From NCBI RefSeq assembly GCF_003018115.1, contig NZ_CP027457.1: a DNA stretch of 64,000 nt, one strand, 5' to 3'. Every line of letters starts with the position of its first letter. Position 1 is the first letter of the stretch. The position numbers are program-made. Below are positions 12,601 through 18,600 of this stretch, one piece after another. The DNA comes from Escherichia coli (GTDB lineage: Bacteria; Pseudomonadota; Gammaproteobacteria; Enterobacterales; Enterobacteriaceae).

Positions 12601-15600
12601 TCATGGCACGTAATTTTTTCAGATGAGCTTCTTGTTCTGTTTCTGCCAGAATTTGTCGGTATTCCTGGTGATCGATTCGTTCAAACAGTTCATTAAAATC
12701 GTTTATTTTTACCGACTGTGTTCGTCCATCCATTCTTCTGTACAACACGATGTTATTTATGCAGTGAATAATTTTGACCGGGTAACCGGCACTGTCGGTA
12801 TACAGTTGTCCTTGATTAATCAAATCGAACATTTTTTCTCCTGTTCTCTGAATAGCGAGAACTTCAGAGCCGTATATTTGTAGCGGGTTCAATACTGATA
12901 ATTTCTGCAGCTACAAGCATTCCAGCAAGCCAGCTCTCTCCGGACAGGTCTTCATCCTGACATATCAGTTCGCCAATATTAATGGTGGCCATGATATCTG
13001 TTCCCCCTGTGCGCTCATCCTCGACTTCTTCATAAGGCAGTGTTGCGTACAGGCTTTCAATAGCGCAACTGATAACATCCAGTCCGGTCAGATTGCCGCC
13101 GACAGTAACTTCGAATGTTTCGCGGTATTCCCATAACCCGAAAGTTAATCGAACGGTTTGTTTTGCCATGCGTCCGCATGACGTCAGATTCGGGTCATAG
13201 TTCATTATTTGCGGTTGGGCATTATGGGTGTTCATCTGCTTTTCCCTTAGCCCGGCGGCCTGCCGGGCATATAAGTTATTTAACCTGGATAAATGGTGTA
13301 TTGGCACCGCTGGTCATGTATTGCGGCAGTGTGCCGTTCCATTTATTGATGGCTTCCAGCTCCATAACACCGGGGTTCTGGCGCAGAGCTTCACCGCGTA
13401 AACGAATAGCATCGGCTTCGGCCTGGGCTTTTGTGCGAATGGCGTCAGCCTGTCCGGCTGCTTCCGCGCGCAACATGTTGGCTTCCGCTTCGCGCTGTTT
13501 TACTTCCTGTTCGCGTTGCAGGGTTTTCTGGTTCGCTGTGACTTTGGCATTAATGCTGTCGATCACGGTTGGCGGGTATTCCGGTTTACCGACATAAGAG
13601 AGGCTCATTACCTGAATGCCGATGGGGGTCATTTCTGCCTGAATATCTTTAAGTGCTGAATCCAGCAGTTCAGACTTGCCACCGTCGATAAATTTATCGG
13701 TGGTCATTTTGCTGGCCAGTCGGTTGAGTGCGTCGGCTATCTTCTGGCGCAGGTCAGTGTCGGTAATGTCATCCACGCCTTTGCGGTAGGTTTGAAACAC
13801 TGTAGTAACTTTGGATGGATCAACCTTGTAGGCCACACCGATGTGATAGCCGATGGTTGTGCCGTCACTCATCTGAAAGCTGAACGGTTCATCGTAGGTC
13901 TTCATTTGCTTGAAGGTGGGGAAGATGTAAACTTCAGTATTCCAGCCAGTCCAGTAGCGACCAACACCGACCACCTCACCGACGCCTTTATCGTCGCCCA
14001 GTTTATTTACTTTGATGCCAACATTACCGGGCTCAACGCGATCGCAACCGACAAGACCAATGGTCGGCAGAACAATGGCTAAAGCAAAAATAATTTTTTT
14101 CATTTTTTATCCTTAGTGAAAGAAAGACCCTTGTAAATGGCATAAATGCAGGGCGGGGTCAGAAACGCCAGTGCAAAGCCAGAAATAACTGCTCTCGTAT
14201 CCTTCATGGATATAAGGAACGGAACGAGTAATCCGTAAATGCATGCGATAATTGCCAGTAAAATTACTATTGTGAAATACAGTCTCATTGGTATGTGGTA
14301 TCCCGATATTTTTAACTGACAGACAGCGCAATAAAGAGAATAATGATTTCTGTTAGTGTCAGTACTGTGGCAAGGATTAAAAGCAGTTTTACTCTGCTTA
14401 ATTCACGGTCGCTTTTCATATAAACGGTTAGTAAAAAACGGAAGAGTTATATTCTTCTTAATATTTAATGTGTCACTGGCCTTCTGGCATACCATGAGTA
14501 TTCAGGTCGTTAATCATTTCATCCAGAAGGAGTTCAAGCCCTTCTCGACCTATATCTGAAAGAATGAAACCTTTATCAGGGGAAGTGGTGAGCATTTTCT
14601 GATAAAGAAACAGCGCTCTTCCCATTCCATCAGCTTCGCCATATGTTTGAATTAAATTCCATTCAATATACTGCTGTAAGGCAAACCGAATGGGACTAGG
14701 GTATATAGTCATAACTCCATGCTTCCCGTTATATATTACGGCGCGATCTGTTGTTCCGTGTTCATTCGGGACATCAATTGTGCCGTTCTTGTCTTCTTCT
14801 TCGTTGATGAATGTCGTCACATACAACCATCGCCACTGGGCAACCTTCATCTCAACCGGAAGTTTTCCCAGTAATCCTGCTTCGTCAGCTTGCGCGAGAC
14901 ACTGAAGGATACGTAAACCTCGCACATTAGGAGTATCGAATTCTCCAGCATCCAGAGGGCGTATGGCGTCGTGATAATCAATAGTCATACTGCCTGTTTG
15001 TATACCATTGGCTGTTGCTTCAGCCTGGAATTCAGCGTAGTGCATGAAATTTATTCCTCATCTTCATCTGCTGGTGCAATAACGTCATATCCTGCCTTTT
15101 CTGCAATAAACAGGAATGTTGAAAGATTTCCTACAAATTCATCGTCATGAACATGACGAATTAATATTACTTTCCCGTTTTTGATGGTCAGCAATACTCT
15201 GGTTTGTTCGTGTTCTGCTGTTTTCTGATGCATTATTATCTCCCGTATGCTTTACGCAGAAACAAGCAGGCAATATGCATGTGATTTTTCCCGTGTTGTG
15301 CAATAAGGCAGGCTGTTTTGTGTGATGCCTTATGTTTTATAAAAGTCATAATAAAACCTCCTGTGGATTAAGTGTGTGATAATCCCCGGCGATTAAGCCG
15401 TAATATAGTATCTGGAGATGACTTGTTCTATTTAACTGGATAGTTCTTTTTCAGCTGCTGCTTCAGCATAGCAACGTGCAAATTCAAGAACTTCATCACC
15501 TGTTCTTTTTATTGCGTCGTTGTCTGACATTTGTAATACGATAACTGCGCATAATAAATTATGGATATTGTTTGCAAAGGAATCCGGTGCCAGGCATAAG

Positions 15601-18600
15601 CCTTCATACTTATCATGGATATTGCCAGTCATTGTTGCTGCTCCTTTGCTTCTGATTTTCCCGTTAACAACCACATCAGGTCACAATTAAGAGCACTGGC
15701 CAGTGGTACTATCTGAGCAGCTGGAACTTCATGGATGACGCATTCCCAGTCGTTTATGGGGTCGCTGTAGGTATTAATCATGCGGGCAAGATCAGATTCG
15801 GTTAATCCCAGGTTTTTACGGGCGCTTTTGATGCGAGCGCCAATACTTTCTTCCCGTGGTTCTGGCACATTTACGCGAATAACAGACGCGCTATCTTTTT
15901 CATCCAGCAAAGAAAGAGGATCGCACCCAAGGACGTTTGCCAGGGGGATAAGCATGCTGATGGTCGGTTCGAACTCTCCGCTCTCCCATTGCAGGATGAT
16001 CTCTTCATCGAGATCAAGCAGTTTGGCAAGTTCGGTGGTCGTTAAGCCGCAGGCTTCACGTTGGGCACGGATTTTTCCAAAAAAGTGACCGTGCGAAACC
16101 ATAGCTTTTGCCTCACATAGTTTTTCTGCAAAAATTGATGCAGTTTCTTCTGTTTTTTGCAGGGAACGCATCAGGCATCTGATTGCATTATAAACCCTCT
16201 CACTTTCTGCTCCGTTTTCTGACATGTAGGAATAGATCATTCCAAGCAGCGAGCCGCCTTCTTGTATTTGTGCTGCAATTTCATCCATCACCTTAACTGC
16301 ATGCTTCATATGAGCCTCCTGTTGTTTTAATTTTACAATAGCCAAGGCGTTTGGTTGTGTCAATCGCTATAGCTATGTATTTTGGGCAGCAAAGAACAGA
16401 TTATGAGAGAAATGAGACGATACGTAGGGAGTTGAGATACAGGAAAGTAGAGCAGCTGCGCAATACAGCTGCCGGTGATATTGACTTATCCGACCCTGTT
16501 ATACTGGATTGACTGATGAATGAGAACTTTCCCCATTATGAATAGATGTTCTTCAGCTGATTCACTTATAAACCATTCCTTGTAGGCCGGATTGTCTGAT
16601 ATAACAGCAAGTTGCATCCCTTGCATTTGCAGGCGTTTGATATGGAAGGTGTGCCCAAAAATAAAAATATATATACCGTCAGTTTCAAAATTTCTGACGG
16701 ATACGTCGACAAACACCTGATCTCCTGCACACAGAGTAGGAGCCATGCTGTCGCCATTAACTGTTATCATCTTTATGATATTTGCTGGCCTGCTACAGAA
16801 CAGGCGTCTTGCGGCGTCATGTGAAAATTCTATAGCATGGACCGTTTCTGCAAAATCTGAAACAAGGAATGTTCCTGGTCCCGCGCTGGCAGCGATATCC
16901 AGGACTTCCACACGAAAAATATCCTTATCATTTTCTTGCGGGGGATATGATTCCTGCGGTGTCAGATTGCAGGATGTGCTTTCTTCTGAGTTCATAGGGC
17001 CAACGCCGTATGATAGCCACTCAGGGCGTACGTTCAGGATATTGGCGATTTCCACAACTTTTCTTGAACCCGTGGCACCATTAACCAGTTTATTGACGCT
17101 CGATTGAGCCATGCCAACTTCTCTGGCCAGTTTTCCCTGTGAGTATCCTCGGATAGTCATAGCTAACTGTAGCCTGTCTGAAAAGCTCATAAGTCCTCCT
17201 TTTTCTGTCCTTTTAGTGTATCGCCTTAGCGATATATACACAAACCGCTTTTTCGCGCATTGCAATCGCTTTATTCAATCGCTATAGTGAATATCATAAG
17301 GCTGGAGGTCGATATGAAAAATGAAGGTATAGCCAAGGCTGTAGATATTGCAGGAAGCCAGCTTGCTCTGGCAAAGCGTTGTGGTCGCGCGCAGTCAACA
17401 ATTTGCGACTGGCTGAATGGGAAGAAAAAAATTTCTCCTGAATTTGTTCCGTCTCTGGTTAAGGCGGTTGATGGGAAAGTCCAGGCGTATGAATTTCGTC
17501 CTGATCTACCGGAGCTTTTCCCACACCCAAGCTTAGCGCACACAGAGGATGAGAAGTGATGGTGGTGATATGAGCGAAAAAATAACTATTAAATACGATG
17601 GGGCAACCATTTCGATTGCCCCAATCACATTAGCGTTCGCTGAGAAGTTGTTGGTAAGCCTTAAAGGATGCGAACTGCATTCTACCTTCGGCATTGATTC
17701 CAATGCCTTCGCTTGTACACCAGGCGATGAACTCGGCTGTATCCGCTTCAACTTTAATAACTCGTTGCCCGCTTCTTTCGACACGCTTAATCAATTTTTC
17801 AGCGTCGTGTTTCCACTCGGTGTAACTGTCGGAGAGCACATCAGCATCAGTAAAAATATTTTTGAGCTCATGATACTGAATCGCATCGCGAAACCAGAAT
17901 AAACCAACGGCCTGAACTTTCATGTCGAACCTCCTTTGGTTCTTTTGTTTATAGGGATCAACAGGATAACTGAAGGAAGGTTCGGCACCAATAAGTACGA
18001 AAGTGCGGAATCTTAAAAGAATTTATCCGTAAGGAGATGGCAGTGAACACCGTAATTTTTAACGGCAAAGCATCCATGACCAGCGTTGAGATCGCAGAGC
18101 TGGTGGGAAGCCAGCATTCAGATGTTAAACGTAATATCGAACGCCTGGTTGCCAAAAGCATAATCCGGAAACCGCCAATGGCTGTTTCCGAGAAAATCAA
18201 TAACTTAGGGTTTAAAGTTCAACATGAGCATTACTTGTTTGAAGGCGAACAAGGCAAACGCGACAGCATCATTGTTGTCGCACAGCTTTGCCCTGAATTC
18301 ACCGACTGCCTGGTAGATCGCTGGCGTGAACTGGAAAAACAAATCCGCAAACCAATGAGCCAGATCGAAATGGTTGCTGCAATGGCGCTTGAAGCTGTTC
18401 GCCAACAAAGACGTCTTGAGCAGGTGGAAGAGAAAGTCACCTACGTTACTGAAACCGTCGAGCGAATCAAAAGAGGCACCATACGCGATGGTTATGCAGG
18501 CTACCGTCAGCTGGTAGCGAAAACGGGTATGTCAGATGCGAAATGCCGCAATCTGGTGAACGCATATCAGATCCCTACCGACCCCCATGAGTTCATGAGG

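Follow-up and report, generated by a model that had tools for sequence, protein, structure and literature searches.

Anatomy of a probable lysis-lysogeny switch with a lambda-like core and non-lambda arms in an Stx1a-converting, Eru7-like prophage of Escherichia coli

The window analyzed here, a stretch of 64,000 nucleotides of an Escherichia coli genome (contig NZ_CP027457.1 of assembly GCF_003018115.1), holds a complete-looking lambdoid prophage that is Shiga toxin (Stx) 1a-converting and inserted next to yecE. We examined the part of this prophage in which the genes for a CI-type repressor and a Cro protein are flanked, on the left, by a gene for a regulator with two XRE-type helix-turn-helix (HTH) domains (hereinafter the two-HTH regulator) and, on the right, by a gene for a 97-aa protein on the opposite strand (orf97). 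An earlier note on this DNA had described a non-canonical immunity region whose regulatory logic differs from that of lambda. The region is probably the lysis-lysogeny switch of an Eru7-like lambdoid prophage, with a lambda-like core to which non-lambda arms are attached.

Gene content of the prophage and the immunity region

The prophage genes are arranged in the order integrase, short early-left operon, switch region, Rha/Ant-type genes, a replication set (HTH initiator, DnaC-like ATPase and DnaB helicase), Q, stx1AB, lysis genes and head and tail genes, with lambda-like morphogenesis genes (Table 1). Given this gene content around it, the region is assigned as the immunity region of an Stx1a-converting phage. 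Positions 15300-18100 of the window are 100% identical to E. coli O178:H19 strain 2012C-4431. The comparison set consisted of 80 viral contigs encoding relatives of the CI-like protein, 10 of them with a CI 96-100% identical to that of the window (close relatives) and 70 with a CI 53-58% identical (distant relatives).

The cI gene on the minus strand and cro on the plus strand are divergent and separated by a 123-bp intergenic region with operator sites. The CI protein matches the Pfam families Peptidase_S24 (1e-17) and HTH_3 as well as phrog_4, and carries the features of self-cleavage, namely Ala103-Gly104, Ser148 in a GDSM motif and Lys185 in a KRL motif. Given this domain, cleavage site and Ser/Lys dyad, RecA-dependent induction is expected for this repressor. 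Its helix AQSSVNKL recurs unchanged in the distant relatives, the Cro proteins of which are 68-76% identical to that of the window.

Table 1. Coordinates of the prophage genes and of the predicted control elements and RNAs in the window
Feature	Coordinates	Strand	Details
Integrase	10859-12145		prophage gene
orf66	15432..15632	-	66 aa; ATG overlaps TGA of the two-HTH gene (ATGA), translationally coupled
Two-HTH regulator	15629..16309	-	226 aa; first gene after PL
Regulator, XRE HTH2	15662-15844	-	residues 156-216
Regulator, XRE HTH1	15908-16075	-	residues 79-134
Regulator, N-terminal two-helix hairpin	16082-16309	-	76-aa N-terminal region
PL promoter (predicted)	16363..16335	-	-35 TTGACA (16363-16358), 17-nt spacer, -10 TATTGT (16340-16335); 10/12 to consensus
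OL1	16337..16352	.	AATAGCCAAGGCGTTT; spans PL spacer and edge of -10; matrix rank 6
OL2	16362..16377	.	AATCGCTATAGCTATG; abuts PL -35; includes first 13-mer copy; matrix rank 4
CI-type repressor	16486..17190	-	234 aa; N-terminal HTH, C-terminal S24 self-cleaving domain
PRM promoter (putative)	17215..17243	-	-35 TTGTGT (17243-17238), 17-nt spacer, -10 TACACT (17220-17215); OR3 within spacer
OR3	17219..17234	.	TATCGCCTTAGCGATA; perfect palindrome TATCGC-CTTA-GCGATA; matrix rank 1, 22.9 bits
PR promoter (predicted)	17260..17288	+	TTGCAA-17-TATAGT; 9/12 to consensus
Degenerate OR2	17264..17279	.	only left half-site ATCGC (17265-17269) remains; within PR spacer; matrix rank 22, 7.0 bits
OR1	17277..17292	.	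AATCGCTATAGTGAAT; covers PR -10; includes second 13-mer copy; matrix rank 2, 18.5 bits
Cro	17314..17559	+	81 aa; YdaS-type HTH (PF15943, 1.9e-15)
orf97 moron block	17552..18030	-	479 bp, between last cro codons and Rha ribosome-binding site
orf97 terminator hairpin	17599-17623	-	G+C hairpin, T-rich tail
orf97	17630-17923	-	97 aa; Shine-Dalgarno sequence (SD) AGGAGG 17930-17935, 6 nt before ATG
orf97 promoter-like block	-10 17963-17968; -35 17986-17991	-	TTGGTG-17-TATCCT
Rha-family protein	18043..18750	+	PF09669; phrog_63 'anti-repressor Ant'; RefSeq annotation
BRO-N/Ant-type antirepressor-like protein	18803..19627	+	phrog_130 'anti-repressor Ant' (6.5e-59); RefSeq 'BRO-N domain-containing protein'
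isrK-like RNA	19678-19754	+	ends in terminator hairpin; Rfam isrK, 61.6 bits (gathering score 50), full length
C4 antisense RNA	19779-19866	+	RF01695, 82.4 bits (gathering score 45), full length, model positions 1-87
C4 target sites	a1 19703-19709; b1 19718-19726; a2 19873-19879; b2 19904-19912	+	
Rha-domain antirepressor-like protein	19924..20475	+	183 aa from internal ATG; phrog_821, phrog_518, phrog_373
Q-family antiterminator	25225-25659		prophage gene
stx1A and stx1B	26166-27392		prophage genes

Operators and promoters of the CI/Cro switch

The OR region of the distant relatives has a textbook layout, with three ATCGC-N4-GCGAT sites in a fixed register with the promoters. The first site, T-ATCGC-N4-GCGAT-T, lies in the spacer of the leftward promoter TTGCCA-17-TACTAT (PRM), the second, A-ATCGC-ATAG-GCGAT, abuts the PR -35 element TTGACA, and the third, ATCGC-TAAA-GTGAT, fills the PR spacer before CATAAT. 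The OL region of these phages has up to three sites, of which OL1 lies over the PL -10 element TATTGT and OL2 abuts the -35 element. An operator weight matrix that was trained solely on the OR sites of the distant relatives and scored over the ~64,000 positions of the window placed OR3 and OR1 of the window at the very top, with OL2 and OL1 close behind (Table 1).

The window operators are 16 bp long, with the consensus A-ATCGC-N4-GCGAT-T, and correspond to those of the three-operator relatives site for site. OR3 is kept in all close and distant relatives, OR1 is homologous to their ATCGC-TAAA-GTGAT site (O1), OL1 to ACAATAGCyAArGCGAT, and the junction GCGAT-TGACA of OL2 is the same as the O2/-35 junction in the relatives. 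The palindrome at 17219-34 and the ATCGC half-sites, two further copies of which start at 17265 and 17278, had been noticed before between cI and cro; the matrix rank of OR3 and the homology of the sites in the relatives support their reading as operator DNA. For the core of the region, the proposed departure from lambda logic is thus not borne out, given that it is a CI/Cro switch with operators of this homology.

The 13-mer TCAATCGCTATAG that had been reported to be shared by the two promoters occurs in exactly two copies, 16360-16372 and 17275-17287, both on the plus strand, and these turn out to be parts of OL2 and OR1. At PL, where it overlaps the -35 element by 4 bp, it comprises the -35 flank together with the left half and the spacer of OL2; at PR, where it takes in most of the -10 element, it comprises the left half and the spacer of OR1. 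As stand-alone statistical evidence, the 13-mer is weak, with 3 matches against 1.06 expected in a mismatch-tolerant search, and we used the comparative and weight-matrix evidence instead. The shorter CAATCGC occurs 4 times in 64 kb, 3 of these inside the two control regions, which together make up 299 bp.

Both promoters named in the earlier note, TTGACA-17-TATTGT for PL and TTGCAA-17-TATAGT for PR, are present and sensibly placed. The PL hexamers recur in the distant relatives in the same register with the operators, and the first start codon follows ~20 nt after the expected start of transcription. PR is kept in the close relatives, with one exception that has TTGTAA. PRM can be placed only tentatively, by positional homology to the TTGCCA-17-TACTAT promoter of the relatives. 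The promoter scan was dropped as evidence, with matches equally frequent in shuffled DNA. Given that the hexamers and the 13-mer are statistically weak on their own, the case rests on the comparison with other genomes.

The lineage of the window deviates from the distant relatives in several respects. The remnant of OR2 is located 13 bp from OR1, whereas the relatives carry a full O2 19 bp from O1; the matrix scan found no OL3 in the window, whereas the relatives have the full set; and PR lies ~12 bp upstream of its position in the distant relatives, so that OR1 covers the -10 element rather than the spacer. These deviations are common to the relatives with a 96-97% identical CI, in which the left half of OR2 is conserved and the right half is variable.

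In its general plan, the switch resembles the immC regions of lambda, 434 and P22: cI and cro are divergent, PL lies downstream of cI, CI combines an HTH with an S24 domain, and partially symmetric operators common to OL and OR overlap PL, PR and PRM. The short operator is also found in 434 (14-16 bp). Unlike in these phages, the half-site is ATCGC, OR2 is degenerate, there are two OL sites instead of three, Cro is of the YdaS type, the cI leader has an SD, and N, nut, cII and cIII are all missing.

Three further observations concern operator-like sequences. Sites with at most two mismatches occur about once per 1.25 kb. One operator-like site, AATCACATTAGCGTTC at 17623-17638 (rank 10), overlaps the stop codon of orf97, which could be due to chance. 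At one comparison locus (L130, with the R2 repressor cluster), a related CI with the helix AQSSVNQL, i.e., with a K to Q change, is encoded beside operators of the form ATCGA/ATCGG...CCGAT; this paired change of helix and operator may represent a natural specificity switch within the repressor family.

The early-left and early-right arms

The earlier note had recognized no N-, cII- or cIII-like protein and no exo/bet/gam, and this assessment stands. Pfam, PHROGs and NCBIfam matched none of the early-left and early-right open reading frames (ORFs) scanned to N, CII, CIII, Exo, Bet or Gam, and no such gene is annotated in RefSeq; specifically, the Phage_CII, Lambda_CIII and YdaT profiles had no match after cro or in the PL operon. 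The gene next to cro in the distant relatives is cII-like (106 aa) or YdaT-like (180 aa). The window has neither; its first PL gene encodes an XRE regulator rather than an N homolog, and its cro is followed by orf97 and Rha. Near PL and PR, there is no boxA-like match and no Rfam element, and no nut or put site was found; the PL and PR leaders, at ~20 nt, are too short for such a site. In three of the relatives (L046, L040, L024), a boxB-like hairpin, GCCGGGAAGACGGC, was seen by eye after PL, which suggests that distant relatives, unlike the window, use N/nut.

Profile searches with the 226-, 66- and 97-aa proteins, which had been proposed as a check, yielded an HTH family, a paralog of an N-terminal domain, and a family of ~100-aa proteins lacking a curated match, respectively, and no N, cII or cIII homolog. 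The two-HTH architecture of the 226-aa protein is supported by both Pfam (HTH_3/HTH_19) and the AF2 model, in which two five-helix XRE domains (pLDDT ~90) are joined by a disordered linker (138-151). The N-terminal region, previously taken as a 75-aa domain, spans 76 aa and is modeled, at moderate confidence, as a long hairpin (residues 2-76) of helices 2-32 and 37-76. Both HTH units resemble DicA (NF007257, below the cut-off) and, among PDB structures, the repressor domains of 434 and P22 c2. PHROGs labels the family as 'CII-like regulator' (phrog_4836). This label is not supported by any CII profile match and was treated as an annotation artefact; it appears to trace to phage ASU11, a deposited record of which names the protein 'putative CII repressor'.

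The family of the two-HTH regulator is abundant in E. coli prophages, with single 90%-identity clusters on more than 1000 contigs, and is present in some twenty Stx phages and in ASU11, with a one-HTH form in phiP27. In the family alignment, both HTH units and the linker are near-invariant (75-100% identical across immunity types), whereas the first ~75 residues fall into at least 8 mutually unalignable N-types. Among 77 loci, each N-domain type is paired with a single upstream repressor cluster, whereas neither the HTH copy number (one or two) nor the downstream gene follows the N-type. Within the immunity type of the window, the N-domain is 97-100% identical and the HTH part 86-100% identical. 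Thus, the left edge of the exchangeable immunity cassette lies inside the regulator gene, at the domain junction. The one-HTH versions, of 136-181 aa (P0098, P0100 and P0104; loci L140-L177), look as if recombination of one HTH unit with its homologous partner had produced a deletion.

The two-HTH gene overlaps orf66 in an ATGA, as had been noted. The orf66 product belongs to phrog_4587 (E 4e-36), weakly matches the N-terminal portion of phrog_4836, and aligns over 44 aa, at 48-50% identity, with the N-domains of two family members (P0039 and P0020; E ~1e-8). No Pfam, NCBIfam, PADLOC or toxin-family match was found. By homology, orf66 is a free-standing paralog of the N-domain of other two-HTH family members and not a toxin. 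In the Eru7 phage Stx2_14040, both the regulator N-domain and orf66 are of the orf66-matching type, and other loci of the two-HTH family carry different small ORFs of similar look. Comparison of the N-types by hhalign linked types C and I (84%), types D and E (89%) and, over an 18-column C-terminal stretch, types D and I (96%); other pairs were not linked. Between orf66 and a 60-aa ORF (15051-15233, minus strand; phrog_340), which resembles the C-terminal part of the antirepressors phrog_4792 and phrog_2379, there is a further, unannotated ORF of 37 aa (MTFIKHKASHKTACLIAQHGKNHMHIACLFLRKAYGR; 15236-15349, minus strand) with an AGGAGG ribosome-binding site.

In the SinR/SinI system of Bacillus, an XRE-HTH regulator with a helical oligomerization domain is accompanied by a small paralogous antagonist. 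The arrangement in the window is alike in that, at the family level, an adjacent small gene is homologous to the helical domain of the regulator. It differs in that the helical domain is N-terminal (C-terminal in SinR), there are two HTH units, no sequence relationship exists, and orf66 matches the N-type of other family members rather than that of the neighboring regulator. By analogy with SinR/SinI, we infer that the two-HTH protein might be an early DNA-binding regulator that dimerizes or oligomerizes via its hairpin, and that orf66 might be a SinI-like modulator. A wider proposal, which we consider speculative and unlikely to hold in full, is that the two-HTH regulator and orf66 form an unrecognized, immunity-linked early module that is a companion of Eru7-type Stx phages: the hairpin would confer a private oligomerization or partner specificity, possibly toward the cognate CI or Cro, orf66 would titrate it in SinI style, and the module would replace the N/cII/cIII layer in setting lysogenization, induction and Shiga toxin output.

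Two other functions of the two-HTH protein have to be weighed against the reading of a CI/Cro switch with a modular early regulator. It could antagonize the switch, or act as a partner in it, in an immunity-specific manner, with a hairpin that binds the cognate CI (or Cro); as the first PL product, it would provide positive feedback to lytic growth, or otherwise set the decision in place of cII/cIII. The strict pairing of N-types with repressor clusters, with HTH number and downstream gene free to vary, the mosaic junction exactly at the domain boundary and the position of the gene as the first to be derepressed in a phage lacking cII and cIII all fit this possibility. We nevertheless consider it rather unlikely, because physical linkage accounts for the association without any function, the protein has no similarity to known antirepressors and would not need two conserved DNA-binding domains for such a role, and dedicated Ant/Rha-type genes are already present in the right arm.

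The protein could also be a second repressor, DicA-like or akin to the two-HTH, peptidase-less CI proteins, which acts on phage or host promoters independently of CI, in hetero-immunity, exclusion or host reprogramming. The affinity of the HTH units to DicA and to the 434 and c2 repressors, the annotation of a relative in phage phi467 as DicA, and the two-HTH 'CI' proteins described in Stx phages (Fagerlund et al., PMC8951638) are in line with this view. However, a gene behind a CI-controlled promoter should be silent in the lysogen, and there is no conserved candidate site near PL. No family member is annotated as CI in the deposited phages, and a tie to the 'Clade VIII CI' that Fagerlund et al. 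describe is no more than a lead. Hence a second repressor seems to us quite improbable.

On the right, the Rha gene is the first early-right gene after cro in the relatives, and the cro stop codon overlaps the GTG start codon of Rha in those with a 96-97% identical CI that lack the orf97 block (L007-L014). Among the 15 best-matching E. coli genomes, 6 have the block; the other 9 matches end at the end of cro. The 97-aa reverse gene with its AGGAGG, reported previously, is indeed present, forms an independent unit on the repressor strand, and is conserved under purifying selection, with a ratio of nonsynonymous to synonymous substitution rates (dN/dS) of 0.06-0.27. The flanks, i.e., the terminator-like hairpin and the promoter-like block, are conserved in the E. 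coli, Klebsiella and Pectobacterium copies. In every case, homologs of orf97 come directly behind cro or behind the first early-right genes, face PR convergently, and adjoin repressors and Cro proteins of different types. In E. coli OkiPb01695 (L178, 2252-2610), the cro/Rha slot contains a bssS-family gene in place of orf97, along with the same ~110-bp promoter-bearing segment (17921-18030 in the window); the slot therefore takes exchangeable cargo. Given the presence/absence polymorphism, the conserved flanks, the purifying selection and the alternative cargo, orf97 is a bona fide moron, and its anatomy makes the suggested expression in the lysogen plausible.

The profile search with orf97 yielded 1129 representative clusters of ~100-aa proteins, some of them outside phage contexts, and these belong to no curated family: even with 47 diverse members, there was no match in Pfam, NCBIfam or PADLOC. 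A Foldseek search of PDB gave nothing significant and a profile search of PDB gave nothing. The single strong fold match is another protein without assigned function, SO3848 from Shewanella oneidensis (PDB 2ox6), a 162-aa structural-genomics target with 12% identity to orf97 and no sequence-profile link.

Alternatively, the orf97 unit could act as a convergent transcription block or insulator, with the protein being secondary; in the lysogen, it would restrict read-through from PR into the Rha and replication genes. The orientation of the gene, the interruption of the cro-Rha translational coupling of the relatives and the acceptance of unrelated cargo in the slot agree with this idea, whereas the selection on the protein, the size of its family (more than 1000 clusters, some outside phage contexts) and the defined alpha/beta domain of its predicted fold argue against it, so that we find it unlikely.

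Beyond the Rha and BRO-N/Ant-type genes, the early-right arm contains an isrK/C4 module. With its targets (19665-19912), it lies ~2 kb to the right of the switch, outside the region covered by the earlier note. In C4, the segments UUUCCAC and CUAUGUUGA are unpaired and show full complementarity to the a and b sites, one pair of which lies upstream and one downstream of C4. The global duplex energy of C4 with its flanks was uninformative compared with shuffled sequences, and the exact complementarity of the unpaired segments was used instead. The b2 site abuts the SD/ribosome-binding site of the ATG at 19924, where the Rha domain of the downstream protein starts; the PHROG labels of this protein are transcriptional regulator or anti-repressor. 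The RefSeq CDS annotated as 'Rha family' (19624-20475) runs through both RNA genes; it probably begins 300 nt too early, the real start being ATG 19924. The isrK/C4 pair is also found at six comparison loci (L002, L004, L089, L091, L095 and L096), including Stx2_14040, ASU11 and other Rha-type loci.

For comparison, we used the immI locus of P1/P7 and the isrK-orf45-anrP locus of Gifsy-1 (PMC4825925). As in these systems, C4 scores above the gathering threshold and has complementary a1/b1 and a2/b2 sites, b2 is located at the ribosome-binding site of a downstream antirepressor-like gene, and an isrK-like terminated RNA lies upstream. Unlike in these systems, the module is embedded in a lambdoid early-right operon, and the gated protein is of the Rha type rather than P1 Ant. 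By analogy, the isrK/C4 module would gate the Rha-type antirepressor-like gene with P1 immI-like logic, which is the clearest departure from lambda regulation in the region and suggests a second immunity layer via an RNA-gated antirepressor-like protein.

Several observations concern other parts of the prophage. Compared with the best match, NZ_CP024289.1, there is a 4-bp coordinate shift between the integrase and cI, and the DUF4222 ORF (12590-12892) seems to be intact in the window, while it is annotated as frameshifted in NZ_CP024289.1. An Rfam match to the small RNA STnc100 (194 bits; 27471-27684, plus strand) lies directly 3' of stx1B and 5' of a nanS-p-like esterase gene.

Phage class, proposed mechanism and significance

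Stx phages have been sorted into Eru types by the genes after cI; Eru7 is defined by a Rha protein directly after cI-cro, with Stx2_14040 (LC567818) as the reference phage and phiP27 likewise in this type (Fagerlund et al. 2022, PMC8951638). In the window, a Phage_pRha-family gene is the first after cI on the opposite strand, apart from orf97, which precedes it, and Q and stx lie downstream. The left arm is shared with Stx2_14040 at 92-94% DNA identity. The window also resembles Stx2_14040 and phiP27 in its Rha genes, one of which directly follows cI-cro in those phages, in the early-left genes orf190, orf60, orf66 and the HTH-coding part of the regulator gene (85-98% identity), in the isrK/C4 module, in the replication set (HTH initiator, DnaC-like and DnaB), and in Q and stx. 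The window differs from these phages in its immunity cassette (CI 35% identical) and regulator N-domain, in the orf97 moron between cro and Rha, and in the extra BRO-N/Ant gene.

The absence of N, cII and cIII from some Stx phages has already been noted by Llarena et al. A 'No Rec module - high Chi' class, which accounts for 22% of lambdoid phages, has many Chi sites and a type phage without N (Zheng et al. 2025, PMC12315714). The prophage of the window (10859-59000, ~48 kb) fits this class (LLS) by its features: it has no exo/bet/gam and no N homolog, and Chi sites (GCTGGTGG) number 12 on the plus strand and 3 on the minus strand, most of them at 18-33 kb. The early-left genes of the window differ from those of LLS and ST64B. 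The literature search on a reverse gene after cro or on Eru7 function found nothing beyond the cataloguing papers. Thus, judged by gene content, the non-lambda arms are real, with the predicted isrK/C4 gating of a Rha gene among their features, and to this extent the idea of a logic different from lambda is upheld; yet they belong to catalogued classes, the Eru7-type Stx phages and the N-less, Rec-less, Chi-rich lambdoids.

From the sequence anatomy, homology and conservation of the sites, binding, promoter activity and SOS induction can be predicted as follows. PRM would drive cI and PR, in the opposite direction, the gene of the YdaS-type Cro; PL lies downstream of cI, and 16-bp operators overlap all three promoters. 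CI bound at OL1/OL2 and at OR1 (plus the half-site) would shut PL and PR, and OR3, in the PRM spacer, would provide autoregulation. RecA-stimulated self-cleavage of CI would lead to derepression, followed by production of the Q antiterminator and expression of stx1. The PL operon would open with a modular XRE regulator, composed of an immunity-linked hairpin and two conserved HTH units, followed by the coupled hairpin paralog orf66. To the right of cro, the self-contained moron orf97 would be followed by Rha/Ant-type genes, one of them gated by the isrK/C4 antisense RNA as in P1 immI.

Several observations weigh against this reading. In the switch itself, the promoter scan as a whole found 7 promoters against 6.1 expected in shuffled sequences, i.e., no excess, and the PRM hexamers are weak; furthermore, given the atypical OR, with a half-site OR2 13 bp from OR1 and a shifted PR, CI cooperativity and PRM activation may differ from those in lambda. 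In the left arm, the one-to-one association of N-domain and repressor is equally well explained by linkage, which suffices because only ~170 bp of non-homologous DNA lie between them. No motif that the conserved HTH units might recognize was found to be common to the PL regions of 8 immunity types, and the window's own N-domain matched neither orf66 nor the other N-types (nothing in BLASTP; hhalign probability 0.1). On the right, the promoter-like block of orf97 is a weak match to the consensus and was not called by the promoter scan.

The possibility raised earlier that the two-HTH protein is a toxin-antitoxin-type antitoxin, such that an XRE antitoxin and orf66 as a small toxin would form a toxin-antitoxin or abortive-infection pair, is highly improbable: the two genes are translationally coupled and the XRE HTH has weak NCBIfam matches to HipB- and MqsA-type antitoxins, but these matches span the generic HTH only, far under the cut-offs, the downstream gene is interchangeable, and orf66 has no match to a toxin family, in PADLOC or in NCBIfam but shares homology with the N-domain that the regulator family itself carries.

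What is new here is descriptive: the operator map, the immunity-linked N-domain and its paralog, the moron slot between cro and Rha, and the presence of isrK/C4 in Stx phages. These findings refine a catalogued class and do not overturn current understanding, so that their importance is modest. With the operator map (ATCGC-N4-GCGAT; OL1, OL2, OR1 and OR3) and the promoter assignments, the CI/Cro layer of the common Eru7-like class becomes directly testable. Widespread uncharacterized parts are flagged, namely the modular XRE regulator, its free-standing paralog and the ~100-aa family with more than 1000 clusters, and the isrK/C4-gated antirepressor-like gene emerges as a regular part of these Stx phages that is hidden in a mis-extended CDS annotation. 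Given that the switch would govern induction of the Stx1a prophage, its anatomy bears on toxin release by Shiga toxin-producing E. coli.

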